This document shows, piece by piece, positions 40,707-60,274 of a stretch of DNA of 64,000 bases (within the stretch, counting starts at the first letter, position 1; every line of letters starts with the position of its first letter). The notes below the pieces were generated by a model. The model searched no databases. It saw only the letters and a list, made by a program, of their open reading frames with translations, and was not told the origin of the DNA. The position numbers and the translations under genes were made by a program. This DNA is from Nanobdellota archaeon (GTDB taxonomy: Archaea; Nanobdellota; Nanobdellia; Pacearchaeales; GW2011-AR1). The stretch spans positions 2,688 through 66,687 of the forward strand of contig JAHJSH010000017.1 of NCBI GenBank assembly GCA_018830525.1, in the 5' to 3' direction.

Positions 40707-40778
40707 GCCTCAATAGTATAATGGTTAGTACACGGCCCTGTCGCGGCCGAGACCCGGGTTCAATCCCCGGTTGGGGCG
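40707..40778 (+). tRNA. tRNA-Asp(GUC), 72 nt
   Basis: Acceptor GCCTCAA/TTGGGGC, anticodon arm CGGCC-CTGTCGC-GGCCG, T arm CCGGG-TTCAATC-CCCGG. Confidence 0.92.
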
Positions 40779-40825
40779 TGAGACAAAAACGAACGGTTTA
40801 AATAAATCGCTTGTTTAGTTATTCT

Positions 40826-41947
40826 ATGAACATTAAGATTGATATTCACAATAGGAACTATGAATCTCGAAGAAAGGTGATTAAGACTTGGGAGATTCCC
40901 GACGTTGAGAAGAAAAAGTTTATTGAATTCTTGGATGAGATGGCTCTCGGCAGAGTAAACAAGGGCAAGAAGATTGGGGAGAATAGGCTATGCAAATATA
41001 TTTCTATGTTAAGAGTTCCTTTTGAATTTTGGAATAAATCTATGACGACACTCACCCTCCAGGATGTTAAGAATTTTGAACAGGATTTTTCATCAGGAAA
41101 AATAAAGACTAAGAATGGTGAAGAATTTGCAGATAGTTCTAAGGTAGATACTCGAAAGGCTCTTAGAATTTATCTTAGATGGCGACTCGGAACTGATAGA
41201 GCAAATAAGTTAGTTGATTGGTTAGACACACGAACCCAAGTCAAAACCCCCGAATTTCTAAGAGAAGAAGAAATTGAATTGCTTTATCGGAGTTGTCGAA
41301 ATGCCAAGGAAAGATTTTTGATTGCAGTATTATTTGATGCGGGTTGTCGTGCGGAAGAATTTCTTAATATCCGATATGAAGACGTATTTACTCCAAAGGA
41401 TTCTTCGAACTTTGTTAAGGTTGCCCTAAAAGAGGAATACAGCAAGACTAAGGGCAGAACTATCTCACTTTATTGGAAACATTCAGTTGAAGCAGTTAGA
41501 GATTATTTAGATGAGAGAAAATTTAGGGGAATAAAATCAACAGAACAAGTATACGAAGGAACTTATGATAAGGCAAGACAATTTATTCGACGGCTTGGAT
41601 TAAAAGTTTTAAACAAGCCTATCCATTTTCACCTATTTAGGCATTCTTCAGCGACATATTATGCTTCTCGATTGAATAGGCAACAACTTTGTATTCGGTA
41701 TGGATGGGCTTTTAGTTCTAATATGCCTGATGTCTATATTTCTCGGGCGGGAATGGAAGACAAGGAACTCGACGAGAGAATGGCAGGGACTAAGATTGAA
41801 AAGATACAAGAAGACTTTTTGAAGAAAGAACAGGAGATGAAAATTGAAATGGGTGAACTCCGAGAAAGATTAGACGGGCAGGAGTCCTTCAATAAACAAA
41901 TTCTTGAGAACATGAAGAAATTTAATCAGACACTTAATAAAAAATGA
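40826..41947 (+). CDS. int: Tyrosine recombinase/integrase
   Basis: FDAGCRAEEF (Arg), HFHLFRHSSATYY (HxxR), MPDVYISRAG (Tyr); 48 nt downstream of tRNA-Asp. ATG at 40826 preferred over TTG at 40811. Confidence 0.87.
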   Translation: MNIKIDIHNRNYESRRKVIKTWEIPDVEKKKFIEFLDEMALGRVNKGKKIGENRLCKYISMLRVPFEFWNKSMTTLTLQDVKNFEQDFSSGKIKTKNGEEFADSSKVDTRKALRIYLRWRLGTDRANKLVDWLDTRTQVKTPEFLREEEIELLYRSCRNAKERFLIAVLFDAGCRAEEFLNIRYEDVFTPKDSSNFVKVALKEEYSKTKGRTISLYWKHSVEAVRDYLDERKFRGIKSTEQVYEGTYDKARQFIRRLGLKVLNKPIHFHLFRHSSATYYASRLNRQQLCIRYGWAFSSNMPDVYISRAGMEDKELDERMAGTKIEKIQEDFLKKEQEMKIEMGELRERLDGQESFNKQILENMKKFNQTLNKK

Positions 41948-42042
41948 AATTTAATATTAAATCAATATTTGAAGCGACGCTGTGGGTGTTTGGGATTCTT
42001 GCGATAGTAGTTCTTATCTGGGGGATAACAAAAACATTCTAG
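41944..42042 (+). CDS. Possible 32-aa single-TM peptide
   Basis: ATGA overlap with the integrase stop; MKFNIKSIFEATLWVFGILAIVVLIWGITKTF. Confidence 0.25.
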   Translation: MKFNIKSIFEATLWVFGILAIVVLIWGITKTF

Positions 42043-42130
42043 AAAGGATATTAATTAAGATTATATTAAAAATTACTTTAAACAAAGTAATATAACAAAT
42101 ACATTGAGTTAATTTAATATTTAATTAATC

Positions 42131-42994
42131 TCAAATTCTAAGACTCATTCTCGCCCCCAATAGGGCATTTACCATTTTCCTATTTATGAGAGTTAGCTCT
42201 TTGATTAGAGTTTCTTTTGATTTTTCCCATGAACTATCATTATAATCTCTAGTTATACCGAATTCTTCATGATGTTTTCCCAATAATGAGTACTTTTTAG
42301 GCATCTCTTTAGGATTGGGAAATTTCTTTTTTGATTTTCTTATGAAATAATATTGTTTAATCTGGGAATCAGAATCGAAAGAAGTTATACCTGGACTATA
42401 ATTCCACATATTATTAATTGTATTTTCTAAAATCTTTCTTATTACTCTTTCATCAATTCCATCTTCATTAATTTCGGGGGCATTTTCTAATCTTTTCTTT
42501 TCAAAAGATATTTCAGAGTAAGGGGTTACAAAATATGAAACATACCATTTTAACATCCCTTCAAGAAAATCTTCATCCCTAGAATATAAACTATAAATTT
42601 CTTGTCTGACAGTTTGACTAAAAAAACAATTCTCTAAAAATTTCTTCTCACTTGGACTAAACTCCATATTTCTCTTTTCTTTGCAATATCTAAAAAAAGG
42701 TTCTATATTGAAAATATACTTTGTAAATTTTTGAGTAGTTCCTATTTTTGTTTTTTCGGGTGATTTTTTTGAGTAAAAAAACTCTTCATCTTTCCATTTA
42801 TTAAATGTTTTGTTGACGTTAGGCATGCTCCAACTTGTTCTTTTGGAAGCTTTATAATATTTTTTCATCGTTTTTTCATACATTTTTTTACTAACACCTG
42901 AAGGATTATTAAACTCAATAAAAAATTTCCACGCAATTTCACGAGTCTTTCCAGTTTTAATTAATTCCAACCAATTTTTATTATTTTTAACCAT
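42131..42994 (-). CDS. Hypothetical protein (287 aa)
   Basis: Long ORF, Lys/Glu/Phe-rich; no family recognised. Confidence 0.5.
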   Translation of the reverse strand: MVKNNKNWLELIKTGKTREIAWKFFIEFNNPSGVSKKMYEKTMKKYYKASKRTSWSMPNVNKTFNKWKDEEFFYSKKSPEKTKIGTTQKFTKYIFNIEPFFRYCKEKRNMEFSPSEKKFLENCFFSQTVRQEIYSLYSRDEDFLEGMLKWYVSYFVTPYSEISFEKKRLENAPEINEDGIDERVIRKILENTINNMWNYSPGITSFDSDSQIKQYYFIRKSKKKFPNPKEMPKKYSLLGKHHEEFGITRDYNDSSWEKSKETLIKELTLINRKMVNALLGARMSLRI

Positions 42995-43054
42995 TTTAAC
43001 CTATCAATACTTTATAGTTAATAGGTTTTATATGCTTTTCTACTATATTCTATT

Positions 43055-43198
43055 ATGGCAATCAAAACATTACCAGTAAATTTGCAAGAAGAAACAATTT
43101 TAGAGATTGACAAAATTGCAAAGGCGGAATTATCTTCGAGAACGAGGATATTAAGATTGGCAATTAGAGAATATTTGGAGAATCAAAATGGAAAATGA
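43055..43198 (+). CDS. Ribbon-helix-helix (CopG/Arc-like) DNA-binding protein, 47 aa
   Basis: Below track cutoff; MAIKTLPVNLQEETILEIDKIAKAELSSRTRILRLAIREYLENQ has the RHH strand-helix-helix pattern. Confidence 0.6.
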   Translation: MAIKTLPVNLQEETILEIDKIAKAELSSRTRILRLAIREYLENQNGK

Positions 43199-43349
43199 AT
43201 TTGACTCCGTCCAGAAAGAAATCTTAAATGAAATGAATAAACTTGGAGCGAATCTGATAGCCTTAGGGCTCCTCAATTCAGATTTTTCGGGGGAGGAATT
43301 TTTGTCAACCTCCCCCCTTTCTTTTAAGCCAGGGGTGAATCATGAGTGA
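43188..43349 (+). CDS. Hypothetical small protein (53 aa)
   Basis: Overlaps the RHH gene end by 11 nt and the next ORF by 8 nt (operon-like chaining). Confidence 0.3.
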   Translation: MENEFDSVQKEILNEMNKLGANLIALGLLNSDFSGEEFLSTSPLSFKPGVNHE

Positions 43350-43512
43350 AATAATATTCCATCTTGTAAAATTAATAAAACGGGGCATTAGTCCGATAGA
43401 GTTGATTAATGATTTTGATTATAGTTCTGATGATGTAAAAACTGCATCTAGAATAATTGCTTATATCGATACTTGTTATAAAAATAAATTAAAGGAGACT
43501 CTTTTAGAGTAG
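43342..43512 (+). CDS. Hypothetical small protein (56 aa)
   Basis: ATG..TAG ORF chained to the previous one: MSEIIFHLVKLIKRGISPIELINDF... Confidence 0.3.
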   Translation: MSEIIFHLVKLIKRGISPIELINDFDYSSDDVKTASRIIAYIDTCYKNKLKETLLE

Positions 43513-43601
43513 TTAGTTAAGTAGTTAGTTAACTAATTAATAATTAATAATATGATACTGAAAAAAGTAAGTGTTAATGAGTTTTCTAATTCAATTAAAC
43601 G

Positions 43602-44108
43602 ATGAGCGGTTCGACAAAGGCATTCTATGCAACTAGTGAAGTTCTTGAGATTATCAAAGGATTTGATAAGGGAATGATTTCAAAAATTTGTAATCAGGCA
43701 CTTCTTGAACACAATAATGAAATTATAGATTTAGATATTCTAGCAAAAAAGGTGGATAGTCTCATCCAAGAAAAAGAAAAGATTAATGCCCAGATTAATT
43801 ACCTAACTCGAAGAAAAAAGGCTTTAGAGGGGCAAGGAGAAACCCAAAAGGTGATTCAAAAAGAAGCCCTAATCCGGGAAGAAAAAAGAGAAAAACAACA
43901 GGGGATAGAAAGAGAGAGAAAGATTCTTGATTCACACATTGAAATTGCACTAAGGGAGTTTGATTTTCCTAAAGAAGTTGCTTTAAAAGTTTCTAAGGAA
44001 TATATGGGACTTCCATCTCAAAAAAGGAAAGGTTTTACAACATTTATAGAATCTCTAGGATACACGAGGAAGGAGAAATCAAAAAGATTCGTTGGGGGAA
44101 AGATATGA
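43602..44108 (+). CDS. Hypothetical coiled-coil protein (168 aa)
   Basis: ORF; Glu/Lys-rich central helix. Confidence 0.5.
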   Translation: MSGSTKAFYATSEVLEIIKGFDKGMISKICNQALLEHNNEIIDLDILAKKVDSLIQEKEKINAQINYLTRRKKALEGQGETQKVIQKEALIREEKREKQQGIERERKILDSHIEIALREFDFPKEVALKVSKEYMGLPSQKRKGFTTFIESLGYTRKEKSKRFVGGKI

Positions 44109-44329
44109 CTACTCCAATTAAATCTATCCGTTTGAAATGTTTGGACTGTTGCTGTGGCTCTAGTTATGAAGTTTCTAAATGTCTTTGTGTTGAGTGTTCC
44201 CTTTATGCATATAGATTTGGAAAAAGACCTAGAAGTATTCAAATATCTAAAAAGATTTCTGAACCCCTGAGTAAGCCCTCTATCGGAGATGAAATAACAG
44301 TATCTCAGGGGGAGGCTCTAGATGGATAA
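44105..44329 (+). CDS. Cys-rich small protein (zinc-binding), 74 aa
   Basis: LKCLDCCCGSSYEVSKCLCVECSLYAYRFGKRP; 4-nt overlap with the upstream ORF. Confidence 0.5.
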   Translation: MTTPIKSIRLKCLDCCCGSSYEVSKCLCVECSLYAYRFGKRPRSIQISKKISEPLSKPSIGDEITVSQGEALDG

Positions 44330-44459
44330 ATGTTTTATTTGTAAAAGGGAAGCGAAAGCTTTTATTTTAGGGAAAAATATATGCAGAAATCACTATGAAT
44401 TAATCTTAAGACTAAGAAATGACAAAAACCTTTGGGAGATTATAGAAAAATCATTTGTA
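44322..44459 (+). CDS. Possible 45-aa zinc-finger peptide
   Basis: MDKCFICKREAKAFILGKNICRNHYELILRL...; overlaps the previous stop. Confidence 0.3.
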
Positions 44460-45510
44460 TAAATAGGATTAATTAAAATATCCATTCGCTCGTTCTGTAT
44501 AGTGTATAAACAAATTTTAGATTTTTCAATTATCCTATTAAATCTCCAATATCACGGGTAATAAATAATAAAAATAATAAAAAATGGTGTATACTCATGT
44601 ATAACAACTTGACTGCTCAGAAAAAAAAGTCATGGAATTTAATCCTTATTTTGTTAGGTGGGGGGCTCTTGTCCCCTATAAAATCTCAAAATATACCCAC
44701 AGATTAGTTTCATATCCGTCCCCTTAAGAGAATGTATAAGCTAAACAGCGTCGAAAAGTTTGCTCATTGGCTAATTATAATCTCCATTTCTTAAGGAATA
44801 AATAATTATCAAGATAACTTCTAGAAACCCCCCCTTATCCCCCTGTGAATTCAAAGTGTCACCCAACTTTTAATGTATAAGCCTAGAACCCTAGAAAAGT
44901 TTGCTTACTGGGTAACTGTAGCATAAATGGATTAAGGGATTTGTATAAGGGCATAGCTTATACGGTGGCTTATACAGATTTCTCTCAGGGATTATTACAA
45001 TCCTTTCATCCAAATTTTTCTTCACAGATGAGTTGATGTTAGAAAAACCTCGTAAATACAACAACTACGTTCTTGTTTATAATATATATAATATATGTGT
45101 TAATAAGTTAATAATCATTTTCTCATTTGTTCCTAGAATCGTCTAACTAAGGTTAGACGGAGGATTTAAAATTACGTTATCCAAATTTTTTTTCAGAAGA
45201 ATTAATGGTGGAATAAAATCTCGCAAATACAACAAATACATATCTAACTAAAATATATATAATACAAGAGGCAATTAATCTATAATCTTATCATCCCTTA
45301 CCCTTAAACTCCACTAATTACTATTAGCGGATATGGTAAAAAAGAAGTTATTATTTGAGCCAAAAGCAGAAAAACCAATATACTCTAATAAGGAAATAAC
45401 TAATAATTCTTATTCAAATGTGCCTATATAACCACTAATGCGTATTAATGGAAGGTTCAGGAAAGAGACAATTTCTAAACGTTTTTAAGCTTTGATTTGT
45501 TGGTTCTTTT
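44460..45510. promoter_or_regulatory. ~1-kb noncoding, repeat-dense region (candidate origin/regulatory hub of the element)
   Basis: AATGTATAAGC..N..AAAAGTTTGCT at 44731 and 44872; TGTATAAG/CTTATACA cluster 44942-44976; ~86-bp imperfect direct repeat 45008-45093 / 45179-45264; palindrome CGTCTAAC..GTTAGACG near 45141. Confidence 0.45.
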
Positions 45511-45801
45511 ATGAATTATCCTCAAAGGGCAATGCTTAGGATTGTTGGAGTTATATTATTTCTACTTGCATTAATCTTTAATATATTTATTATGCCCTCC
45601 TCTCCTAATATTCGGATGGCGGATAATATTTGTAATGTTGCAGGATTATTTGGGGGTTCTGGAACTGAATGCGTTAAGGTTCATTTTCTAAGATTGGGTG
45701 TGGATTATTCTTGGATTCTTTTTGTTGTTGGTGCGGTTCTATTCTTTATCGGAGTTTGGGTAGGTTTAGGGGCGAAGGGAAAGAAGGAGATTCTGGGATG
45801 A
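45511..45801 (+). CDS. Small membrane protein (96 aa)
   Basis: Two or three hydrophobic helices. Confidence 0.5.
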   Translation: MNYPQRAMLRIVGVILFLLALIFNIFIMPSSPNIRMADNICNVAGLFGGSGTECVKVHFLRLGVDYSWILFVVGAVLFFIGVWVGLGAKGKKEILG

Positions 45802-46190
45802 AACCTTGTTGTAAATGTAAGAAAGAAGTTTCTTTTCTTGGAGGTTATACTGATAAGGGGAAAAGATATTGTCGTGAATGTTGGAAAAAGAAAGAAAGCG
45901 GAGAACTAGAAGTTGAAGGAAAAATATGGGAATGTGATTATTGTGGGGAGGAATTTTGTAAAAAGGAAGATTGCGGAAAACACGAGCAGAGGTGTAAAAA
46001 AGAAAGACGATTTAGCAATCACACCCTTATAAAAAATAAGAAAACGAGGGAAAGGTTTATCATAATAAAGAGTAGTAGTTTGATTGGTTGTTTAGTTGGT
46101 GGAAGTTATACTATTAGTAATATTAAAACAAAGGAGATTAAAATGATTACGGGGAATAAATTTGCAAAAGAATATGAGGTTTTGGGATAA
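45798..46190 (+). CDS. Zinc-ribbon protein (130 aa)
   Basis: MKPCCKCKKEVSF...RYCRECW...WECDYCGEEFCKKEDCGKHEQRC; ATGA overlap with the previous ORF, so the track start at 45711 was rejected. Confidence 0.5.
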   Translation: MKPCCKCKKEVSFLGGYTDKGKRYCRECWKKKESGELEVEGKIWECDYCGEEFCKKEDCGKHEQRCKKERRFSNHTLIKNKKTRERFIIIKSSSLIGCLVGGSYTISNIKTKEIKMITGNKFAKEYEVLG

Positions 46191-46191
46191 A

Positions 46192-46632
46192 ATGACAAAA
46201 GTTCACTGGACTCAATGGGTGGGGGCAATACCTTTTTTGTTTCTAATAGGGTTACTTATATTTGGATATTTAATAACCGGATTTACGATAATCCTTAATC
46301 TTATCTTTGTGGCTATATTATTATTAATTTATGTTTCAACATACCTCTTCGCTAATAATTTTTTTGACTTCGCGGAAGCAGGTCTTAGTAATGATATTGA
46401 ATTACTCAAACTAGAAAAAGAAAATTCCGCAATTCTTTGGGCATTTTCAAATGGTATTGGTATAGCATTTTTAATTTCTGGGCTACAAGTAGCTTCTGAA
46501 AATCCATTAATGATTATAATAGGACTTGGAATGTTATCTGTTGGAAATTTAGTCTATGAATTATTTTATTATCCTAGATATGCCTTATTAGTTAAAAAAA
46601 GGGTTATTGAAATCATGGAGAAAAATGAATAA
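46192..46632 (+). CDS. Membrane protein
   Basis: Four hydrophobic segments; ATG at 46192 follows the previous stop. Confidence 0.5.
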   Translation: MTKVHWTQWVGAIPFLFLIGLLIFGYLITGFTIILNLIFVAILLLIYVSTYLFANNFFDFAEAGLSNDIELLKLEKENSAILWAFSNGIGIAFLISGLQVASENPLMIIIGLGMLSVGNLVYELFYYPRYALLVKKRVIEIMEKNE

Positions 46633-46867
46633 AAAACAATTGTATATTTTGGCTTGGGGATTTATGTTAATAGGAACTATGTTCATTTATATAGATACTA
46701 GTGCGGGCGTTCATTTAACTAATAGCCTTTCATCCGAAAGACCTTTTGATATATCCGATGCCTATTATGTAATGAACGCGGAAATGTATGACCCATTTAT
46801 TTGGACATTCTTTTCCTTATGGGTTTTATTTATGATATTGGCTTGGCAGACTAAGGAGAAAAAATGA
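46625..46867 (+). CDS. Small membrane protein
   Basis: Two TM helices; ATG at 46625 overlaps the previous stop. Confidence 0.45.
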   Translation: MNKKQLYILAWGFMLIGTMFIYIDTSAGVHLTNSLSSERPFDISDAYYVMNAEMYDPFIWTFFSLWVLFMILAWQTKEKK

Positions 46868-47508
46868 AAAAGAAATGGCATAGAAAACACGTTAAAGAAC
46901 ACGGAGGTTATACCTCCTATCACCAAAAGAAAAGTTATACTTGGGTTTGGTTTCTAGGGATTATTATTCTAGCAAGTCTTGTTTATGCTTATGATGTTGG
47001 TGGAGTTAAAACCTTAATTGAAGAAAAAATTAATCAAGTTCAAGACAATTCAAATCTCGGGGGGAGTCTTCTAAGTTCTGAATGTCCTGAAGGAATAGTC
47101 CCAGAAGTTATGATTATGGACAATAAGCAATTAACTTTTGTAAAAAATATGACTGGAATTTATAGGGATTATCCTGAAGCTGTATCATTTTCAAGTATGT
47201 TCTATTGGAATGACGGAGTTCAAAGTGATTTAGACGCAACAGATGACGGATTCTATTATTATAATCTCTGTCATAAGGGTCAAAGTGGGGGAGAAAATAT
47301 AAATTATATTTATTGTGAAGATTTACCTTATTCAAAGACTATAACGCCTGTTTCAGATGAGGGAGTTATTGGAAAGTCCGAGACAATCTCCTATTCTATT
47401 GATTTGGTCTTGGAAGAAGAGAGTGTCCGAACTGTTAATGATATGATGTACGGGGATGTTCCGATTAGTTCAAATCGGATTATCTCTTCAAAGTGTAAGA
47501 GACAATAG
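46864..47508 (+). CDS. Membrane-anchored extracellular protein (214 aa)
   Basis: One N-terminal TM helix, then a Cys-containing soluble domain; ATGA overlap. Confidence 0.5.
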   Translation: MKKKWHRKHVKEHGGYTSYHQKKSYTWVWFLGIIILASLVYAYDVGGVKTLIEEKINQVQDNSNLGGSLLSSECPEGIVPEVMIMDNKQLTFVKNMTGIYRDYPEAVSFSSMFYWNDGVQSDLDATDDGFYYYNLCHKGQSGGENINYIYCEDLPYSKTITPVSDEGVIGKSETISYSIDLVLEEESVRTVNDMMYGDVPISSNRIISSKCKRQ

Positions 47509-47593
47509 ATTCTGAGGCTTCTAAATGTCCGCCTTTATTCCGTAATTATTCAATTCCATAAATCCTTATAAAGATTAATATTAATTAATATTG

Positions 47594-48040
47594 ATGGATA
47601 ATAAAATAAAATATTGGACAAAACACCAAGAGCTTGATAAATTTAATTATAATATTTCTTTTTCTTCCCTCATTGGACAATTATCGATGAGTATAGCCGT
47701 TTTAATTGGTGTCTTAGTAATAATAGTAACCACTAAGCAATTAGGTGCTTGGGGGAGAGTAATTTCAGTAGTAATTGTGGGGGGTATTTTCCTTTGGTGG
47801 ATGCAATCCAAACTAATTAAATCTCATCAAACAAAATTGAAAGAGACAAATAGAAGTTTTAGAATAAGAGAAGCGATGTTAAGAGTCTGGTATCAAGAAC
47901 TTGGAGTAGATACAGATTTATTGGATAAACAATATGAAGAAATTAAAGCTAAATCAAATCCAGAAATTCTAGAGAACAAACACTTCGAGAAAATTGCGAA
48001 GAAAGTAATTTTGAAATCTAAAAAGTTGAAGAAAAAATGA
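47594..48040 (+). CDS. Membrane protein (148 aa)
   Basis: Two adjacent TM helices, then a charged helical tail; ATGA overlap with the next gene. Confidence 0.5.
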   Translation: MDNKIKYWTKHQELDKFNYNISFSSLIGQLSMSIAVLIGVLVIIVTTKQLGAWGRVISVVIVGGIFLWWMQSKLIKSHQTKLKETNRSFRIREAMLRVWYQELGVDTDLLDKQYEEIKAKSNPEILENKHFEKIAKKVILKSKKLKKK

Positions 48041-52438: not shown

Positions 52439-53455
52439 ATGGTAGAAATAAAGCCCACACTAGACAATAAAGATTTAAAAATATTATTTGAACTTGACAA
52501 GAATTCAAGAATTCATATTTCTAGTTTAGCTAAGAAATTAAGAATTTCAAGAGAGATCATAAAATATAGAATCAAAAAGTTAACTTCCGAAGGGATTATA
52601 AGAAATTTTACAACAATAACAAATCCCTCAAAATTTGGTTATTTAATCTATAAAGTCTACCTTAAATTTCAGAATTTTACAAAAGAAAAAGAAGAAAGAC
52701 TAAATAAATACATTTTATCTAACAAGAATATTTTCTGGATTGCTAAATGTGATGGAAGTTTTGACCTTATTTTGGGAATTTATGTTAAGAATTTAATGGA
52801 ATTTAATAATATCCTACTCGACTTCATGAGCAAGTTCAGCCAAAACATATTATCAAGGCACATTAGCAACTCGGTTTACGTAGACATATATAGAAGAGAA
52901 TATCTAAATCATGGCAAATCGGAAAGGGTAACTTGGGGAGGAGATTTTTCAGAAGAAAAATTGGATAATTTAATGAAAGGAATTCTAAAAATAATCTCTA
53001 AAGATTCTAGGACTTCTGTTGTTGATTTAGCATATAAATTAAAATCAACCCCAAAAACTATTATTTCTAAGATTAAGGAAATGGAGAAAAAACAAATTAT
53101 CTTAGGATATAGGGTAAATTTGGATTTAAAAAAAATAAAAAGGGAATATTTCAAAGCAATCATTTATTTTAGAAATATATCTCACGAAAGAGAAGAGGAA
53201 TTTAAAGAATATTGTCAAAAAAATCCAGATATTGCTTACTATATAAAAACTATAGCCGAATGGGATGCAGAATTAGATATAGAAATAGAAAACTTCACTG
53301 AATTTAATAGATTAACAAGGGAAATAAAAGAAAAATTCGGAGATATAATAAAAACAATAGATACGGTTTTTATTTCAGATGAAATGAAGGGCGAATTAAA
53401 TATCGTTCAGAATCTGTCACCCTCTTATGACAAGCCCTATCCACAAGATATATAA
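52439..53455 (+). CDS. Tandem-duplicated Lrp/AsnC-family transcriptional regulator
   Basis: Two HTH_AsnC-like modules: LDNKDLKILFELDKNSRIHISSLAKKLRISREIIKYRIKKLTSEGII and MKGILKIISKDSRTSVVDLAYKLKSTPKTIISKIKEMEKKQII. Confidence 0.75.
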   Translation: MVEIKPTLDNKDLKILFELDKNSRIHISSLAKKLRISREIIKYRIKKLTSEGIIRNFTTITNPSKFGYLIYKVYLKFQNFTKEKEERLNKYILSNKNIFWIAKCDGSFDLILGIYVKNLMEFNNILLDFMSKFSQNILSRHISNSVYVDIYRREYLNHGKSERVTWGGDFSEEKLDNLMKGILKIISKDSRTSVVDLAYKLKSTPKTIISKIKEMEKKQIILGYRVNLDLKKIKREYFKAIIYFRNISHEREEEFKEYCQKNPDIAYYIKTIAEWDAELDIEIENFTEFNRLTREIKEKFGDIIKTIDTVFISDEMKGELNIVQNLSPSYDKPYPQDI

Positions 53456-53544
53456 ATAAAACCCCCTACACACATTCAACAATAAACACAAGTCCGCAAA
53501 AAGAACTTGTGCATCACTCTATTATACCAAAAAGGGTGCTTTTA

Positions 53545-53556
53545 CGGTCGGGGCGT
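53545..53556. repeat. tRNA-Asp 3' core copy CGGTCGGGGCGT
   Basis: 11/12 match to the tRNA end; followed by TTAGGGGCGTA (53575) and three ACTTTGTNTACRTTA repeats (53563, 53585, 53603). Confidence 0.6.
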
Positions 53557-53621
53557 TGAGTAACTTTGTGTACGATTAGGGGCGTACTTTGTCTACATTA
53601 TCAATTTTGTCTACATTAGAA

Positions 53622-53795
53622 TTAGGAGGCTTCTTTCAAAATCTTAGCATCACCAATTATTCTACATCCATATTCCTCTAAATCAACTCCTAACTTTCCA
53701 CACTTGCAAATATCCATTTTATGATGCTCCTTACTATAACTTTTTAATTTTTCATTACAATGAGGACATTGCCATTCAATTGTTTTATTTATCAT
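53622..53795 (-). CDS. Zinc-ribbon small protein (57 aa), candidate partner/antitoxin of the RelA/SpoT-like gene
   Basis: Below track cutoff; MINKTIEWQCPHCNEKLKSYSKEHHKMDICKCGKLGVDLEEYGCRIIGDAKILKEAS; its ATG lies inside the last codons of the upstream gene (11-nt overlap). Confidence 0.5.
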   Translation of the reverse strand: MINKTIEWQCPHCNEKLKSYSKEHHKMDICKCGKLGVDLEEYGCRIIGDAKILKEAS

Positions 53796-54855
53796 TTAAA
53801 ATTTTCTCCAGATATTTTAAAAACTCTCGTGTGTCTACAAAGTAATTAGGATAAGCCTTTTCTAAATCACTAGCTTTATCTGCCCCAACTAAAACAACAT
53901 CATATCCATGGTTATTTTGATTTATTTTCTCTGCCCTAGAATAATCTGAAATTGCATGTTCCTCATCTTCTTTAGGATATCCTGTTAAGTTAAGTTTTTC
54001 TTGCAAAACATCAAGCTCCAAAAGGAAAAATTTAAGGTTCGGTTTTTCTTTAGCAACTTGTCTAAAAACCCTCACAGCCGATGACCACCCCTTCATGATC
54101 TTTATAACTTGCAATTCTTTTTCTTTTTCTTTTATCTGAGCGTATAATTCTTTCAAATCGGTGGGAGTGTTTGGAACAAGGGGAGTTTTTTCCATTATAG
54201 CGAAAGCTGAACTAACTAGTCTAAAGAAATCTTTCCACTCTTTTTCCCCTTCATTAGATTTTATCGCTTGTCTGGTAAACAAATCTACTGTCTCAATTGC
54301 TGTTGCCCAAAGATGTTGAAGTTTAGACCGTATTTGGATTTCTATTTGTAATCCATTATAATCCTTCTTGCCCTCCTTATTGCTTTTATATTTATATACC
54401 AAATGAATACTACGATAACCATCGGATTTTGGATATGAAATATAGTCTTTCTCGCTGACTTTAGTGTGTTTCAGGTCGCTATGAATATAGCCCTCTTTGT
54501 AGAGTTTTTTTGCTAAAAGAACATTAGACACAACAGCTCTACATCCTGCAATATCTTGCATTCGTGAAAGCTTCATTGAAGATTTCTCTCCAGAATACAC
54601 TCTTTGTAATTTTTTTAAAATAGATGGGAGCCTTTTTAGCCTTTGAACGCTCACAGCATTATTATCAATTTTTTCCGAAACTAATTTTAATCTTTTTTTA
54701 AAAATGTGCATAGGGTATCTATGTATAGCTCTCCAATTATCTAAGATACGAAGTGCCTCATCTTTTTCATCTAAAGAACTATTCTTGTCAATTAGAATAT
54801 TTCCTGCCCAATTCACTCTTTTCTTGCTATATCCTTCAGATTTTACCCAAACCAT
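53785..54855 (-). CDS. RelA/SpoT-domain nucleotide pyrophosphokinase (small alarmone synthetase / toxSAS-like)
   Basis: RLKRLPSILKKL, MQDIAGCRAVV, YISYPKSDGYRSIHLVYKY, IEIQIRSKLQHLWATAIE: the synthetase-fold motif series. Confidence 0.8.
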   Translation of the reverse strand: MVWVKSEGYSKKRVNWAGNILIDKNSSLDEKDEALRILDNWRAIHRYPMHIFKKRLKLVSEKIDNNAVSVQRLKRLPSILKKLQRVYSGEKSSMKLSRMQDIAGCRAVVSNVLLAKKLYKEGYIHSDLKHTKVSEKDYISYPKSDGYRSIHLVYKYKSNKEGKKDYNGLQIEIQIRSKLQHLWATAIETVDLFTRQAIKSNEGEKEWKDFFRLVSSAFAIMEKTPLVPNTPTDLKELYAQIKEKEKELQVIKIMKGWSSAVRVFRQVAKEKPNLKFFLLELDVLQEKLNLTGYPKEDEEHAISDYSRAEKINQNNHGYDVVLVGADKASDLEKAYPNYFVDTREFLKYLEKILNDK

Positions 54856-54888
54856 AATAAATTATAATGATAAGACTATTTAAATCTT

Positions 54889-54986
54889 TGTTTTGGGCGG
54901 TTTTTAATTGATAAAAATATAGTTTTGGGCGGTAATTTTTATGCATAAATCGGTATTTATAGAATAAAAATATAGTTTTGGGCGGT
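54889..54986. promoter_or_regulatory. Iterons upstream of the RelA/SpoT-like gene: TTTTGGGCGGT x3, two within a perfect 23-mer
   Basis: ATAAAAATATAGTTTTGGGCGGT at 54911-54933 and 54964-54986; shorter copy at 54889-54901 abutting a TTTAAATAG TATA-like box. Confidence 0.55.
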
Positions 54987-55172
54987 TTTATTACTTTAAT
55001 TCAATGGCTTTGGGCAACAGTCCAAATTTTACCCTCAAACACATTCATCTCAACTTATACCAACATCTCTTTCACCCCCTAGTGGTCGACAAGATTTACA
55101 AGTAAAACCCACCAACCACAATAAAGCAAACAAAACCGACATCCCTTTAGGATGCACGACTGGGGTCGTGGG

Positions 55173-55184
55173 CGGTTGGGGCGT
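55173..55184. repeat. tRNA-Asp 3' core copy CGGTTGGGGCGT
   Basis: 12/12 match; preceded by hairpin CACGAC-TGGG-GTCGTG and followed by TTAGGGCGTAG, as at 53575. Confidence 0.7.
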
Positions 55185-55270
55185 AGTTAGGGCGTAGCAC
55201 CATCAGCGTCGATAAAACTGATGATTTTTGTGTTTGTCTTCGGTGAAATGCTGATTATCTCAGGTATAAC

Positions 55271-55283
55271 AAAGCTTATATAA
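55271..55283 (+). promoter_or_regulatory. BRE/TATA-like AAAGCTTATATAA
   Basis: 34 nt upstream of the ATG at 55317; a similar AAGCTTTTTATAT precedes tRNA-His (around 14320). Confidence 0.45.
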
Positions 55284-55316
55284 CCCGTTTTTCTTCAAAA
55301 ATATGAGGAAACTAAA

Positions 55317-55418
55317 ATGTCAAAATGTACAGCAGTTCTAGATGCGAAGAAAGTCGAAAGCATCACATTGGAAGATTCTAGTGAATCTTTGAATGCCGAT
55401 ACTGAATCTTTAGATTAA
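55317..55418 (+). CDS. Candidate precursor peptide (33 aa)
   Basis: GAGG 8 nt upstream of the ATG; MSKCTAVLDAKKVESITLEDSSESLNADTESLD; stop lies 13 nt before the radical SAM gene. Confidence 0.4.
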   Translation: MSKCTAVLDAKKVESITLEDSSESLNADTESLD

Positions 55419-55431
55419 GTCTTTCTTTTGA

Positions 55432-56718
55432 ATGGTAAAGAAATTAGATTGCCCTAGTGTACCTCATTTGGTACACATCGAGACCACCTATAGGTGTAAT
55501 CAAAAATGTATTTTCTGTTATAACCCTAATCGAGATTGTTCTATTGATTATGAAAAACTTGATCGGATCGTAGATAGTGTGTCAAAATCAAATATCCCTC
55601 ACGTTTACTTAATAGGAGGGGAGCCTTCAATTTTGAAAATTGAGAAACTGAATGAGTATATAGATAAGCTTTCGAAAACTTCTTCGGTGACAATAGTAAC
55701 AAATGGTATAAGATATCTTGATGGTTTGTCTAAAAATCTTGCATGCATCGGAATTCCAATTCATGGGGATAAGAAAACTCATGAGTATCTAACAAATAAT
55801 CCGGGAGGATATGATACTACAATAACAAATGCTAAGAAATATATCAAGGAAGGTTTTGATGTCAGATGTATTCCCGTCCTTATGTCAATAAATTATAATC
55901 AAATGTATGATGTAATTAAACTTGCAGCGGAAATGGGTATGGAAAGTGTTTTCGTAGACCGTTTTGAATCTGGAGGAATTGGGAGTAAGCTGACAAATGA
56001 ATTGATGCCTTCAAATGAACAATTTTTTAAGGCACTTGATCAAATGATTAAAGCAAGGAAAGATTTTGCAATCCCTCTAGGTTTTGGAACTGCAATTCCT
56101 TACTGCTTAGACAAAAGAATGATTGAAGAAGACATTAAGGCTAATTGTGGTGCAGGAGTTACATTTGGTGCAATTAATCCACAAGGAGATTTTAGAATCT
56201 GTAACCAATCTCTAAAGATATATGGTAATGTTCTTGAGGAACCAGTGGAAAAGATATGGAATAAAAAGGAACTTGACGAATTCAGGGATTTAAGTTGGGT
56301 GACTGAACCTTGTATTAATTGCGATTTGTTACATGAATGTGTTTGTGGATGTAAGGTTGATACAAGTTGTTCTGGAGAGTTCTGTGTCGATTGCTCTGTG
56401 AGGGGATGCAAAGAGCCAGTCAATAAAGTTGCAATTAAAAAAGAAGTTCCGAAGATTGGGGTTCCTGAAAAAATGAGGAGATTTAAACGAAATAAGTATC
56501 TGCGTTTAAATAGTTCACACAAGGAAATTTATCTGGTTACAAGATATCAAACAATAAAAGTTGATAAATTTCTTGAAGAAGTTATTGAGTATATTCTGAA
56601 AAATGAATATATTCTAGAAAAAGAGCTTATTAATAATTTTAATAATATGGCTGATGAAAAGACCATAAGGATTATTCTTTCCAAACTTTGTTTAGTTGGA
56701 GCATTAGATCAAATATAA
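55432..56718 (+). CDS. Radical SAM enzyme with SPASM domain and C-terminal PqqD/RRE-like tail
   Basis: CNQKCIFC (CX3CX2C), LIGGEPS, CGAGVTFGAINPQGDFRIC (CX12GX4C), CINCDLLHECVCGC (CX2CX5CX3C). Confidence 0.85.
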   Translation: MVKKLDCPSVPHLVHIETTYRCNQKCIFCYNPNRDCSIDYEKLDRIVDSVSKSNIPHVYLIGGEPSILKIEKLNEYIDKLSKTSSVTIVTNGIRYLDGLSKNLACIGIPIHGDKKTHEYLTNNPGGYDTTITNAKKYIKEGFDVRCIPVLMSINYNQMYDVIKLAAEMGMESVFVDRFESGGIGSKLTNELMPSNEQFFKALDQMIKARKDFAIPLGFGTAIPYCLDKRMIEEDIKANCGAGVTFGAINPQGDFRICNQSLKIYGNVLEEPVEKIWNKKELDEFRDLSWVTEPCINCDLLHECVCGCKVDTSCSGEFCVDCSVRGCKEPVNKVAIKKEVPKIGVPEKMRRFKRNKYLRLNSSHKEIYLVTRYQTIKVDKFLEEVIEYILKNEYILEKELINNFNNMADEKTIRIILSKLCLVGALDQI

Positions 56719-56720
56719 AA

Positions 56721-58145
56721 ATGGAAATCACAAACTGCGACTGGGAAATCACTACTGGCTGTAATCTCTCATGTAAACATTGTATAATCAACTGTAAACC
56801 TGAAATAGAACTTTCTACAACACAATGTTTTTATGCAATTGACAAGCTTAAGGAATTTGGTTGCAAGCAGATTAATTTTACGGGAGGGGAAGCTCTTTTT
56901 AGAAATGATTTTCCAGAAATTTTAAAATACTCTTTTGAAAAGGGTATCGTAAATACTGTTTTCACAAATGGTATACTTCTTAAAAAAGAAATTTTAGATA
57001 AAATAAAAAAGTATGTAACTTATTTTGCAATCAGTCTGGAAGGTCCTCAAGAAGAAAATGATTCAATAAGGGGAAGTGGCACCTTCACTAAAACATTGGT
57101 CGCAATAAGATTGTTAAAAATGGAAAATATCCCTTTCGGAATACATATAACCTTAACTTCAAAAAATTATTCTTCATTAAATAAAACATTAAATCTTATC
57201 AAAGAATTGGAACCGTTTAATATTAGCATTAATCAATTAGTCTTAAAAGGGAGAGCCTTAGAAAATAAAGAGGAACTTGATTTGGATATTAATGTTGATA
57301 AGATTCTTTCAATTGTACGAGAGATTTTTCCCGAAGAGGAATTTTCTAAGGATAAGGGATGTAAGGCAAAACCTTCTTCGATAGTTTTAACGAGTGAAGG
57401 AAATATTTATTCATGCACAGAAATTAGGCAGAATTGTCCTGCAAGAAATATTGGGAATATCTTAGACGATACCCCTAAGAAAGAATCTGAAATAGTTTAC
57501 AACTCATGCAAATGTCCATATTATTCCTACAATTCAAGGAGGATAAGCATTAATTTTTTAACAGGGGATGGGTGTGCTGCATTAGAAGAAGATAATTGGG
57601 GGGATCAAGAACTCTTCCCAGGCATTGGAGAGATTTGTAAAAATTGTACAATTTGTTGTAAAACTTATGGTTGGTTAACTTCCTCCGAATCAAGGATGTT
57701 TGTTGAGCAAAAAATTCCTACCGTTAAATTTAATGGATGTGTTTCTTGTATTGATTCCTTCGATAAAGATTCAACTGGAGAAAGGATTTTAGAAGAAATT
57801 CCTATTTGTAGATTCTATAAAAATGAAAGATGTCTAATTCAAGATAAAAAGCCATTAGATTGCCAATTGTTTCCAATAAAGATAAAAGTCAGAAATGGGA
57901 ATGTTTTTTTAGGCCTAAGTAGGGATTGCAAATATATTTCATCCCTAAGTGAAAATGAAAAAGAAGCCCTATATCTTAGAGTGATCAGATATCTGAAACA
58001 TAACTTGGATGGAAAGTTAAAAGATTATTTAGATCTGAGAGTTGAGGTAGATAAAATTTCAATGCCAAAAGATTTTGCTATGAAAGAAATAGTCTCTCTA
58101 TCCCAGAAAAAGGGTGGATGGATTATTGAAGAAACTCTAGTCTAA
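56721..58145 (+). CDS. Radical SAM enzyme (twitch-like) fused to a CxxCxxCC (YkgJ/UPF0153-type) metal-binding domain
   Basis: CNLSCKHC, FTGGEAL, CKAKPSSIVLTSEGNIYSC, then CKNCTICCKTYGW...CRFY...C..Q..KP..C..FP. Confidence 0.8.
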   Translation: MEITNCDWEITTGCNLSCKHCIINCKPEIELSTTQCFYAIDKLKEFGCKQINFTGGEALFRNDFPEILKYSFEKGIVNTVFTNGILLKKEILDKIKKYVTYFAISLEGPQEENDSIRGSGTFTKTLVAIRLLKMENIPFGIHITLTSKNYSSLNKTLNLIKELEPFNISINQLVLKGRALENKEELDLDINVDKILSIVREIFPEEEFSKDKGCKAKPSSIVLTSEGNIYSCTEIRQNCPARNIGNILDDTPKKESEIVYNSCKCPYYSYNSRRISINFLTGDGCAALEEDNWGDQELFPGIGEICKNCTICCKTYGWLTSSESRMFVEQKIPTVKFNGCVSCIDSFDKDSTGERILEEIPICRFYKNERCLIQDKKPLDCQLFPIKIKVRNGNVFLGLSRDCKYISSLSENEKEALYLRVIRYLKHNLDGKLKDYLDLRVEVDKISMPKDFAMKEIVSLSQKKGGWIIEETLV

Positions 58146-59069
58146 TTTTTCCAATAGTTTATCTTTAGTTTCTTGAAAATGATCTATCATTTTAACATCA
58201 GATTTTGTTTGGGGTGAAATAATTTTAATTCCATTTATCCCATCAACAAATGCTCTTGTACAGTCATAGACATCATTATGATAGCCCCCCTCTAGAACTG
58301 CAAAAGTAGGAACTCCAAGTTCTCGAAAAAATCTTCCAATATATTGATATCCCCCCAGACTAAAGTTTAGGTTTCCTAAGGGATCTTTTGAATAAGCATC
58401 AAAACCGGCAGATATACCAATCTTCGTAGGGTTAAAATTCCAGATAAGTTTCGCGGCAACATCTAGAGAATCTTTTAGTATATCGTCCCCAGCACCCATA
58501 GGTAATGGGAGGTTTGCATTGCTCCCCCGTCCTCCCGCTTCTCCAATTTCCGAAGTATCCCCCGTATAAGGCCATTTTCCTTCTTCGTGTGTTGAAAAAT
58601 AAAATACTTCAGGATCTTTGTAAAATATGTCTTGAGTGCCGTCACCATGATGGACATCAAAGTCATAAATAAAAACTCTCTCCCCATTTTCCTGAAGGTA
58701 CTTCGCTAAAATTGCCATATTATTAAACAGGCATAAACCTTTAGCCTCATTTCTTTTCGCATGATGTCCGGGAGGATGAATAAGTGCAAAGTTATTTTCT
58801 ATGGCTGCTTCAAGCCCTAAGTTTAAGGAACTCACACAAGAAATATATGATTCGGGAGATAGCCTTGCTTCTGCAAGAGTATAATGATTTTTGCATGCAC
58901 CTTTAATTTTATCGATATGCTCTGGGCTATGAACTAAACTCATAAGTTTTTCTGCAGTATTCACCTCCGAACAAGACCTATTATGGGAAAATCCTGAAAG
59001 ACGATAAGGACCTTCAACCTTACAATTAGGATTATGGCCCATTACAGATTTATTAAACAGTATCTTCAT
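58137..59069 (-). CDS. Histone deacetylase-family (arginase fold) deacetylase / acetylpolyamine amidohydrolase-like
   Basis: HPPGHHA, DFDVHHGDGTQDIFY, SAGFDAY..DPLG, EGGY. Confidence 0.85.
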   Translation of the reverse strand: MKILFNKSVMGHNPNCKVEGPYRLSGFSHNRSCSEVNTAEKLMSLVHSPEHIDKIKGACKNHYTLAEARLSPESYISCVSSLNLGLEAAIENNFALIHPPGHHAKRNEAKGLCLFNNMAILAKYLQENGERVFIYDFDVHHGDGTQDIFYKDPEVFYFSTHEEGKWPYTGDTSEIGEAGGRGSNANLPLPMGAGDDILKDSLDVAAKLIWNFNPTKIGISAGFDAYSKDPLGNLNFSLGGYQYIGRFFRELGVPTFAVLEGGYHNDVYDCTRAFVDGINGIKIISPQTKSDVKMIDHFQETKDKLLEKLD

Positions 59070-59728
59070 TTTATTTTTTTTAAGTCAAGATATAATGTTC
59101 GAGTTCTAGGATTATCAGGGTTTTTAGTTATAATATCTCCTACGAATCCATTTCTTTTAAATATACTTGCAGTTTTCTCTAATTCAGATTCACTTCTAGG
59201 ATAAAATTGAAAAATTAGTGGCGCATTAGTCCCAAGAAGACCATAAGTCCCTTCAGCTACCTGCCGAATATCTCCCTCTTCCTTAAGCCACTGAAGAGCC
59301 GAAACAGAAACAATCCCGTCAAACTGTTGGCCTGCAAAAATTTCTCCGACATTTCTCATATCCCCCACATAAGCCTTAATCCCTCTTTCGTTTGCTTTCT
59401 CAACCATTTGAGGAGTTACATCAAGACCAATAACTTCAAAGCCCATATTTTGATAAACTGCTGAAGTGTATCCAGGACCACAACCCATATCTAAAATCTT
59501 AGAGCCTTTCCCTAAATTTAACATCTCAACAACATTATTAGCAATTCTCTCTTGAGCCTTCCTCATTCCCCCGGAACGAGCAGATTTCTCAACTTCCATA
59601 GGGGTATAAAAGAATAAAGGATTGCCATAGGTTTCCTCCGGCCGATTGTTCTTAACATTCCAGCCTTCATCAAATCGCTTATGACTATGTTTATTCTCAT
59701 ATGCATTTCTACGCCTTGTTTGTCCCAT
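59066..59728 (-). CDS. Class I SAM methyltransferase, Bud23/WBSCR22-like
   Basis: N-terminal RPEETYGNPLFFYTPMEVEKSARS..MRKAQERIANNVVEMLNL, then ILDMGCGPGYTS, parallels the Bud23 N-terminus and motif I. Confidence 0.7.
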   Translation of the reverse strand: MGQTRRRNAYENKHSHKRFDEGWNVKNNRPEETYGNPLFFYTPMEVEKSARSGGMRKAQERIANNVVEMLNLGKGSKILDMGCGPGYTSAVYQNMGFEVIGLDVTPQMVEKANERGIKAYVGDMRNVGEIFAGQQFDGIVSVSALQWLKEEGDIRQVAEGTYGLLGTNAPLIFQFYPRSESELEKTASIFKRNGFVGDIITKNPDNPRTRTLYLDLKKIK

Positions 59729-59804
59729 AAAAGTGGTAAAATCTAGATATTTATAAGCATTTGGGTGTGAAAAGATATAAAAATACTCTAATCAAAAAGA
59801 ATAC

Positions 59805-60227
59805 ATGGAAAACCTAAAAGAAAAATGTATTGATCTCGCGAGATCTTTGCCGGATTGGTTTACTGATGTTGCGATCGAAAACATGAAGATTGACTTCGAG
59901 TTAAATGAAATTATATCTGAAGGAGATTTGGATGGATTTTTAGTTTATAATTCAGACAATGGGACCATTAAGATAATCTGGACTGCAGTAAAGAAAGAAG
60001 CCCAGCGTGGCGGGATTGGGACTCGTTTGATTAATAAGTTAATTGCTAAGGCAAAAGAGCTTGGAGTCAAGGAAATTATAGTTGAAACACTTTCTCCAAA
60101 TCAGGAATATGTTCCATATAATCTAACGCGAGCGTTCTATGAAAAGAATGGCTTCAAGGTTAAGAAGATAATCCCTCCCGAGAAAGAAGGCTGGGATGAA
60201 ATGGTCCTTTATGGGCTGGAATTGTAA
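59805..60227 (+). CDS. GNAT-family N-acetyltransferase
   Basis: VKKEAQRGGIGTRLINKLI (Q/RxxGxG/A acetyl-CoA motif), FYEKNGF. Confidence 0.82.
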   Translation: MENLKEKCIDLARSLPDWFTDVAIENMKIDFELNEIISEGDLDGFLVYNSDNGTIKIIWTAVKKEAQRGGIGTRLINKLIAKAKELGVKEIIVETLSPNQEYVPYNLTRAFYEKNGFKVKKIIPPEKEGWDEMVLYGLEL

Positions 60228-60255
60228 AATAAGCCTAAGTTAAATCCCCATTAGC

Positions 60256-60274
60256 CCCCGGTCGGGGCGTGAGA
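60256..60274. repeat. tRNA-Asp 3' end copy CCCCGGTCGGGGCGTGAGA
   Basis: 18/19 match to 40765-40783 (CCCCGGTTGGGGCGTGAGA); followed by an integrase gene at the same spacing class as at the tRNA. Confidence 0.8.

Follow-up and report, generated by a model that had tools for sequence, protein, structure and literature searches.

Behind the tRNA-Asp gene of a DPANN archaeon (Nanobdellota; GenBank contig JAHJSH010000017.1) the last nucleotides of the tRNA recur several times, and as only some of the intervals between these copies contain an integrase gene, we were interested whether the copies are boundaries of integrated elements and how the segments without an integrase came to lie there. The window, by which we mean the whole stretch of DNA analysed, is 64 kb long, and positions refer to it unless a locus (L number) is named; L001 is taken from the contig of the window itself, the others are related loci. 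The region very probably consists of DNA segments integrated site-specifically and in tandem at the tRNA-Asp 3' end, and we have high confidence that this array arose through repeated site-specific recombination at this end. From its content we infer two autonomous elements, one with integrase 1 and one with integrase 2 and AbiE, and three non-autonomous cassettes of the defence or toxin type. The framework of the array is as follows.

40706-40779 (ARAGORN) or 40707-40778 (Rfam RF00005, 63.5 bits), + strand: intact tRNA-Asp(GTC), no encoded CCA
40768-40779, + strand: core copy 1, the last 12 nt including one base past the discriminator; anchor of the array (pattern search)
40780-49983, + strand: element 1, 9.2 kb (Pfam, NCBIfam)
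49984-49995, + strand: core copy 2, 12/12 (pattern search)
49996-53544, + strand: cassette 2, 3.5 kb, no integrase
53545-53556, + strand: core copy 3, C variant, 11/12; second GGGGCGT at 53579
53557-55172, - strand: cassette 3, 1.6 kb, no integrase
55173-55184, + strand: core copy 4, 12/12; degenerate half-copies beside it, CTGGGGTCGT upstream and TTAGGGCGT at 55187-55195
55185-60258, + strand: cassette 4, 5.1 kb, no integrase (Pfam, gene calls, translation)
60259-60270, + strand: core copy 5, C variant; left boundary of element 5
60271-64000, + strand: element 5, running past the end of the window

Core copies and breakpoints of homology

The core, CGGTYGGGGCGT, covers the last bases of the T stem, the 3' acceptor strand and the discriminator and extends one base further. 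With at most one mismatch it was matched exactly five times in the window (40768, 49984, 53545, 55173 and 60259), always on the + strand, and not once in the first 40 kb. Dinucleotide-preserving shuffles contained 0.02 copies on average and none of 100 shuffles reached five, which rules out chance 12-mers as the source of the cores. The initial annotation had regarded tRNA-Asp as an accretion site with core-delimited intervals and had listed copies at 49984 (12/12), 53545 (11/12), 55173 (12/12) and 60256 (18/19); pattern search recovered all four, and the shuffles, the behaviour of the integrase family, the breakpoints at cores and the array in L094 bear the proposal out. The extended match at core copy 5 (60256-60274, CCCCGGTCGGGGCGTGAGA) is 18/19 identical to tRNA-Asp; the GAGA that it includes is present as described, but it is the start of the integrase-side arm common to these elements and not the trailer of a tRNA. 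The difference between T- and C-type cores would lead to an A-C mismatch against the 5' strand of tRNA-Asp, suggesting that the C-type copies came from attachment sites fitted to a tRNA that differs slightly. Two additional half-copies, GGG(G)CGT, are found at 53579 and 55190. Short partial copies were dropped as evidence, as core matches of 8 or 9 letters also occur at 15524, 19482 and 25440. The only one retained, near 49281 (CCCGGTTGG, 49280-49288), had been put forward as an 8-nt copy, which by itself is meaningless; we count it as real because a 35-nt repeat ends with it (49254-49288 versus 49956-49990, 89% identical). This repeat duplicates the right end of element 1 together with the first 7-9 nt of the core. 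The G+C content of the island is 0.24-0.33 compared with 0.34-0.39 in the flank from 14 to 41 kb, and an Rfam search of the 40-64 kb region yielded no RNA family besides tRNA-Asp. The overall G+C of ~0.33, the tRNA gene lacking CCA and the XerA-like recombinases point to a DPANN source.

In related loci homology to the window breaks at the cores. L004, which encodes an 85%-identical integrase together with AbiE, is homologous to the window from the 60259 core rightwards and has restriction-modification and GmrSD genes to the left of it in place of the window content, and in L133 a homologous stretch of 144 nt runs as far as the final base of the 55173 core (z = 32), beyond which the sequences diverge. 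L094, from a contig of 384 kb, shares the upstream gene (82%) and tRNA-Asp (96%) with the window, and homology breaks at the tRNA and at 60245-60270. Behind its tRNA-Asp follow a 1.6-kb interval with an open reading frame (ORF) of 478 amino acids, a core preceded by an TCCCCATTAGCCCC stub, and a second interval of 7.1 kb, closed by a core, with genes for RelA/SpoT, GNAT, methyltransferases, B12 radical-SAM, double Lrp and a zinc-ribbon protein. L094 thus presents, behind the same upstream gene and tRNA-Asp, the alternative cassette order for which the initial annotation had proposed to look in relatives; an empty site, which it had also proposed to look for, was not found. Arrays of at least three cores were detected in L013, L025, L047 and L065, the last with three copies of the core of the window and an integrase-less interval (MarR and P-type ATPase) ahead of the integrase. 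L093 has three core modules, and cores recur also in L094 and L122. L038 and L042 each contain two integrase-like genes in tandem, and L038 mirrors the layout of the window, with tRNA-Asp, an integrase-like gene 48 nt on, a 7.6-kb element, a core and an integrase-2-type gene. In L025, a run of short core-bounded stubs was observed behind tRNA-Asp.

Integrases and their elements

Only the first and the last of the five intervals encode an integrase, as had been noted, and no credible remnant was found in the other three (49996-60258) by tblastn with 29 integrase queries at E <= 10. The following genes and sites belong to these two elements.

40826-41947, + strand: integrase 1, divergent XerA-like tyrosine recombinase without zinc ribbon (RHS and GW...Y catalytic motifs)
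60271-60345: integrase-side arm and palindromic promoter region
60346-61533, + strand: integrase 2, XerA-like, with C-terminal CxxC...CxxC zinc ribbon (Pfam, NCBIfam, alignment A2)
61746-62492: AbiEi (Pfam, PADLOC)
62471-63358: AbiEii (Pfam, PADLOC)

Both integrase genes follow a core in the order and orientation first described as a common geometry, but their spacing differs, with the ATG of integrase 1 (40826) 47 nt and the start of integrase 2 76 nt after the core. The two proteins, 24% identical, have both retained the catalytic motifs and have an N-terminal motif, DIHN.Y, in common. Both match PF00589, with R166, K192, H258, R261, W283 and Y293 invariant in alignment A2 and integrase 1 aligning across the same motifs. 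Among solved structures, XerA of Pyrococcus and of Thermoplasma (4A8E, 5HXY) come nearest, and the XerA model NF040815 gave 112.8 bits for integrase 2 and 60.2 bits for integrase 1 at a cutoff of 220; models of integron integrases scored far below their cutoffs (TIGR02249, 39.7 bits versus 265; PRK15417, 21.7 versus 435). For integrase 2, 1,836 homologues were found (E <= 1e-10), of which over 100 are 50-63% identical; those with a named source belong for the most part to Woese-, Pace- and Nanoarchaeota. Identity per column averages 67% across 26 aligned members. In the open-access literature we found no account of these integrase families of DPANN archaea or of such arrays. Genes of the integrase-2 family (36-54% identical) were also observed on contigs labelled as bacterial (L024, L028, L046, L055, L069, L087 and L089), the labels being Victivallales (one contig of 326 kb), Lentisphaerae, Verrucomicrobiota and Planctomycetota (a 607-kb contig with a G+C of 0.59). 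Either these contigs are mis-binned or the family crosses domains.

The behaviour of the integrase-2 family was followed at 80 loci taken from GTDB genomes, and 74 loci had enough upstream DNA (77 from GTDB plus L004, L007 and L008, less nine that were too short). At 30 of the 74 an intact tRNA ends 60-110 nt before the start codon of the integrase, with eight identities represented (Asp, Ser, Glu, Gly, Leu, Thr, Pro and Phe). Among the other 44, a match of at least 11/12 to a tRNA 3' end was detected at the same offset in 17, compared with 1 of 101 controls, and several of the 44 have the short core only with non-tRNA DNA to its left, like the 60259 site. In L007/L008, L037, L041, L042, L050 and L072, elements of 3.7-11 kb lie between direct repeats that comprise 12-16 nt of the tRNA end. 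An identical integrase (P0004) and 3.7-kb element lies behind tRNA-Ser(GCT) or tRNA-Ser(GGA), and the flanks past the repeat differ as well. From these repeats and the occurrence of P0004 at two tRNAs it follows that a 12-nt core is normal for the integrase-2 family and that its elements are mobile. Two copies of family genes occur on one contig (L036/L045) and in one metagenome-assembled genome (L061/L064). The arm on the integrase-2 side, which includes a TATA-like box, is conserved throughout the family.

The contexts of P0004 (L007-L012) deserve a remark of their own. To the left of the element stands tRNA-Ser with GCT anticodon, after SMC and other genes, or with GGA anticodon, after ribosomal protein S10, and of the combinations of two left and two right contexts three of four were seen; a genome may carry two copies, or the copies may have rearranged with one another. 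Ahead of integrase 2, a palindrome AAAGATATAATC...GATTATATCTTT (60300-60340) surrounds a TATA-like box; L004 (~9950-9990) retains it with matching changes in both arms (AAAGAATAATC...GATTATTCTTT), and it may serve as an operator for autoregulation.

Downstream of integrase 1, element 1 comprises ~14 small anonymous ORFs followed by a DUF4238 gene (48037-49062), the remaining matches amounting to one weak ribbon-helix-helix hit. Its assignment as a virus or plasmid was rejected, as PHROGs, PADLOC and Pfam yielded nothing beyond the integrase and DUF4238. Past element 5, the array probably continues beyond the window: the same contig (L001) carries arm motifs GTAGACCGACAAGATTTATAA at 11782-11935 (~280-430 nt past the window) and at 13281-13400 (~1.8-1.9 kb past), each with a degenerate core ~100 nt later (CCCCGATGTAGTGTT and TCTGGAGCGTGAC). 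Element 5 may therefore be only ~4 kb long.

Cassettes without integrase and their arms

The gene content of the intervals proved to be as first described (Pfam, PADLOC). Cassettes 2, 3 and 4 have a core at each end and no recombinase, and contain the following genes and terminal sites.

50162-51403: SoFic-like Fic protein (Pfam; PADLOC PDC-S04/SoFic)
51578-52099 and 52104-52325, - strand: two small ORFs of cassette 2
52439-53455: double Lrp/AsnC regulator (Pfam)
53441-53456: motif CCACAAGATATATAAA in the left arm that ends cassette 2 (motif search)
53622-53795: zinc-ribbon ORF of cassette 3 (Pfam)
53785-54855: RelA/SpoT-like protein (Pfam; PADLOC defence candidate PDC-S33, full length, E = 2.9e-117)
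55062-55172: left arm ending cassette 3, motif CGACAAGATTTACAAG at 55087-55102
55317-55418: ORF of 33 amino acids
55432-56718: radical-SAM/SPASM gene (Pfam)
56688-58145: second radical-SAM gene (Pfam)
58137-59069, - strand: histone-deacetylase-family gene (Pfam)
59066-59728, - strand: methyltransferase (Pfam)
59805-60227: GNAT (Pfam)
60245-60258: stub ending cassette 4, TCCCCATTAGCCCC; the same stub lies ahead of a core in L094

These genes are intact, compact and located on both strands, and the separate upstream regions of the cassettes bear their own repeats and TATA-like boxes. For the comparison of junctions, the labels left arm and right arm were chosen by analogy with phage attachment (att) sites and flanks were anchored on the core; a MAFFT alignment of the raw flanks had misplaced the cores. 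One left arm is common to the window junctions 53441-53556 and 55062-55184 and to junctions of L133 and L093. The arms ending at 53544 and 55172 align with z = 7.3, and that of cassette 3 is homologous to the L093 arms. Their layout comprises the motif (T)CGACAAGAYTTAYAA (short form CGACAAGAYTTATAA), an A/C-rich stretch and the core ~85-105 nt past the motif, and five of the six best motif matches in the 64 kb fall ~85-170 nt from a core. The motif has a form that may represent an archaeal B recognition element with TATA box pointing towards the core; it would read across the core into the next cassette or, upon circularisation, into the first gene of the cassette itself. Some copies, that of L094 among them, have a small zinc-ribbon ORF beginning ~30 nt past the motif. 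Other left arms are of the GTTCGTTAATGTCACGCAC type (49254 and 49956) or reduced to the TCCCCATTAGCCCC stub (60245). The right flank of core copy 2 (49996-50065) resembles that of a degenerate core in L093 (z = 5.0); a single right-arm consensus for the integrase-less cassettes is not claimed, as z = 4-6 is too weak. Folding of four junctions on both strands gave z from -3.5 to +0.4 and no common structure. The arms at 53441-53544 and 55062-55172 share their motif with the arm of a third integrase (7606-8778), and no integrase combining this arm type with the Asp core is present in the window.

For the RelA/SpoT-like gene, 65 metagenome relatives were found. At the DNA level, conservation among them is limited to the gene and its promoter (53783 to ~55016 in the window). 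The closest relatives again adjoin cores or tRNAs, in arrangements other than that of the window. L141 carries the unit without an integrase directly behind tRNA-Asp, and in L122 the gene directly follows an intron-bearing tRNA, with an 11-nt copy of the tRNA end closing a single-gene unit of 1.5 kb. L095 and L133 have a core ~70-80 nt past the RelA/SpoT stop codon, and in L094 the gene occupies another position of a tRNA-Asp array. No integrase was detected within the 6-9 kb examined in L093, L094 and L122.

A second array in the window lies behind the following gene.

12446-12519, - strand: tRNA-Gly(GCC)

Its 3' 12-mer CGGCCCGCGCAT recurs in the same orientation at 7354-7365 (11/12), 900-911, 802-812 and 704-714. 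The first interval contains the third integrase (7606-8778), pointing inward from the far end, which has ~2,400 relatives; around the one relative examined, 10 kb contained no tRNA. In the second interval (7353-912) there is no integrase, and yet its left arm of ~116 nt (z = 26) and right arm of ~30 nt are the same as those of the first. The far end (704-910) is a 98-nt unit repeated perfectly in tandem (2.1 copies, 100% identity). Each unit ends in the tRNA-Gly core, which suggests that core copies recombined recently. In L044 (8645-11188), a 58% relative of the third integrase stands back to back with an integrase-2-type gene, with an apparent 3' half of tRNA-Asp between the two. A 40-nt unit at 20061-20300, repeated six times with 98% identity, is unrelated to the array.

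Several features of the cassettes were observed besides. The RelA/SpoT-like gene is preceded by a pair of 36-nt direct repeats (54898-54986), spaced by 53 nt and each ending in TTTTGGGCGGT, which may be the binding site of a regulator. A sequence of ~37 nt containing TTTTAGTACCAAATAG is common to 50099-50135, upstream of Fic, and 63392-63428, downstream of AbiEii, and a 76-nt homologue (88%) adjoins the RelA/SpoT gene in L136 (1386-1461); it is a putative regulatory module common to several cassettes. Further Fic genes lie at 12852-14009, between tRNA-Gly and tRNA-His, and past the window end (L001 11961-12917). In cassette 4, the order of the 33-amino-acid ORF and the two radical-SAM genes (55317-58145) resembles that of a cluster for peptide modification of the type found for ribosomally synthesized and post-translationally modified peptides (RiPP-like). 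The Logan assembly ends inside the GNAT gene, ~360 nt before core 5.

Origin of the cassettes and comparison with known systems

The array would form as XerA-like integrases recombine the attachment site of a circular element with the last ~12 nt of the tRNA. Each such event would rebuild the tRNA and shift a core copy to the far end, and repeated events at any existing core would stack elements head to tail. The three cassettes are most likely substrates of an integrase supplied in trans, comparable to cis-mobilizable elements (CIMEs), because their attachment-site arms have been kept; some of them may be stripped-down remnants. Mobilisation in trans is favoured by the lack of integrase remnants, by compact and intact genes and conserved arms, by the RelA/SpoT unit behind different tRNAs and by the integrase-less element at tRNA-Gly with both arms conserved. 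Several results speak against this picture of the array. Fic, double Lrp and radical SAM with deacetylase occur elsewhere inside or beside integrase-bearing elements. Left arms vary between junctions, with at least three types, and hence indicate no single integrase; the integrase-less cassettes resemble one another only modestly in their right-hand flanks (z = 4-6), and the sole integrase of the window with a matching arm type (7606-8778) goes with the tRNA-Gly core. The promoter reading of the arm motif comes from sequence only, and most RelA/SpoT relatives below ~75% identity do not adjoin a core. Moreover, IMG/VR scans with both integrases gave no relatives, exact look-ups of four proteins revealed no excised circle, empty site or alternative junction, and all three assemblies carrying these exact proteins share one gene order.

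The same cargo in or beside integrase-bearing elements (L075, L042, L072, L082 and L092) fits decay as well, by which all intervals were once autonomous, three lost their integrase by deletion and nothing was mobilised in trans. We consider this possible, although rather unlikely. Erosion is visible in the duplicated end at 49254/49956, the degenerate cores past the window and the stub arrays of L025, the flank right of 53545 weakly resembles, in our reading, an arm of the integrase-2 type, and loss of the integrase after integration has been reported in archaea (PMC8371274). Decay would however have to leave no integrase fragment in 10 kb of DNA, compact intact genes, a ~100-nt arm conserved up to the core in two cassettes, a tRNA-Gly element with both arms and a single-gene RelA/SpoT unit that is found behind different tRNAs and lacks an integrase within 6 kb (L122, L141 and L094). 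Of the initial proposals, serial integration stands, and the choice between decay and an integrase in trans has been narrowed. A dedicated capture platform, in which integrase 2, from its place at the far end of the array, inserts promoter-bearing cassettes at the adjacent core or tRNA in the manner of an integron integrase, so that the array would be a device for gene capture and not an accumulation of selfish elements, appears improbable to us. It would account for integrase-less DNA just upstream of a core and integrase-2-type gene in the window, L004, L013, L025 and L065, for short cassettes, some with a single gene, with defence cargo, and for junction modules of ~100-200 nt. An integron proper was rejected, as neither the IntI models nor the junction folds nor Rfam gave a positive result and genes lie on both strands. 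The platform likewise conflicts with the TIGR02249 score, junctions without a shared hairpin and cassettes in both orientations with their own promoters; in addition, the integrase-2 gene is itself repeat-bounded and travels with its own cargo (L007/L008), its arms are unlike those of the integrase-less cassettes, and arrays exist with no integrase in the 6-9 kb examined (L093, L094 and L122).

Two further explanations were considered. The core-plus-arm modules might be a small dispersed repeat, like a miniature inverted-repeat transposable element or derived from tRNA, inserted between ordinary genes; the modules are short, two of them in L093 are ~90% identical over 168 nt, and some L093 intervals contain genes that we labelled as housekeeping-looking (a cation transporter and a large multidomain enzyme). 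This is very unlikely, since all copies are contiguous and co-oriented with the tRNA, the other 40 kb has only the tRNA-Gly array with its own core, and every core corresponds to the 3' end of the tRNA beside it (Asp, Gly, Ser and the tRNA of L122); no terminal inverted repeats or target duplications were seen at the junctions inspected, and homology breaks at the core. Alternatively, integrase 2 might be the housekeeping XerA and the core a dif-like site for chromosome resolution that resembles a tRNA end, for which the best NCBIfam match, the nearest structures and the unusual conservation (67% across 26 members) could be cited. We regard this as scarcely credible, as 112.8 bits are far under the XerA cutoff of 220, the gene stands behind many different tRNAs within element-bounding repeats and travels with AbiE, an identical protein occurs at two loci within one population, and some contigs or metagenome-assembled genomes have two copies (L036/L045 and L061/L064).

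Tandem integration at tRNA genes with accumulation of degenerate elements has been described for the tycheposon islands of Prochlorococcus (bioRxiv 10.1101/2020.12.28.424599), and tandem integrated elements of archaea have been reviewed (PMC8371274, PMC6563490). As in Islander/tycheposon islands, a tyrosine integrase acts at the tRNA 3' end, the tRNA is regenerated with displaced partial copies as boundaries, newcomers displace older elements while degenerate ones pile up, and the cargo is adaptive or defensive. In contrast to those islands, the host here is a DPANN archaeon, the integrases are XerA-like with one zinc-ribboned family, the repeats are only 11-16 nt long, and several intervals of one to a few genes have conserved arms and no trace of an integrase. 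In the accretion-mobilisation of CIMEs and integrative and conjugative elements in streptococci, CIMEs are att-bounded elements without recombination genes (PMC5704250). The integrase-less att-bounded segments beside an integrase-bearing relative, above all at tRNA-Gly with both arms homologous, are similar; they differ in the archaeal domain, mixed arm types and no visible conjugation or transfer functions, and their mobilisation remains putative. Integrons, including archaeal ones (PMC9668308), share the array of short cassettes with recombination sites, a tyrosine recombinase nearby and defence or toxin cargo. They are distinguished by the IntI-specific domain, missing here by score, and by folded attC hairpins in place of duplex direct repeats of a tRNA end, and here cassettes occur in both orientations with their own promoters and the integrases are themselves on mobile elements. 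Archaeal integrases of the pNOB8 type stay intact on integration, unlike the 'suicidal' SSV type (PMC7253208), and the integrase genes here are likewise intact beside an att site located outside the gene; by description they belong to another sequence family, which is XerA-like and has MDIHNY at the N terminus as well as a zinc ribbon.

The co-oriented, tRNA-derived repeats on the chromosome also contrast with the pdif/Xer modules of Acinetobacter plasmids. Those modules lack an integrase, are bounded by short Xer sites, include toxin-antitoxin genes and are supposed to be moved by Xer in trans; pdif sites are 28-bp inverted pairs of XerC/XerD half-sites in alternating orientation.

Tandem integration islands of this kind are known; the present one is real, and its archaeal setting is new. 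How DPANN archaea, with their tiny genomes and host dependence, gain and swap genes is poorly known, and tRNA ends are targeted by two or three integrase families of very large size (~1,800 and ~2,400 homologues) that had gone unremarked. As the repeats measure only 11-16 nt, standard island finders can miss these arrays, which concentrate defence and toxin genes (AbiE, SoFic-like, and the RelA/SpoT-like PDC-S33). Tentatively, and with more doubt than confidence, DPANN archaea might possess a general system of cassette exchange with tRNA genes as integron-like platforms for gene capture. Small integrase-less units, often with one defence or toxin gene, would carry an attachment module of ~100-200 nt made of an outward promoter-like motif, a spacer and a tRNA-derived core, and abundant XerA-like integrases would insert, excise and shuffle them in trans at tRNA 3' ends. 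If the cassettes were not mobile, the region would be a well-documented but ordinary tandem island; if they are truly mobile, they would provide a simple route for the flux of defence genes in an uncultured lineage, and with it new compact archaeal site-specific recombinases with defined short targets.

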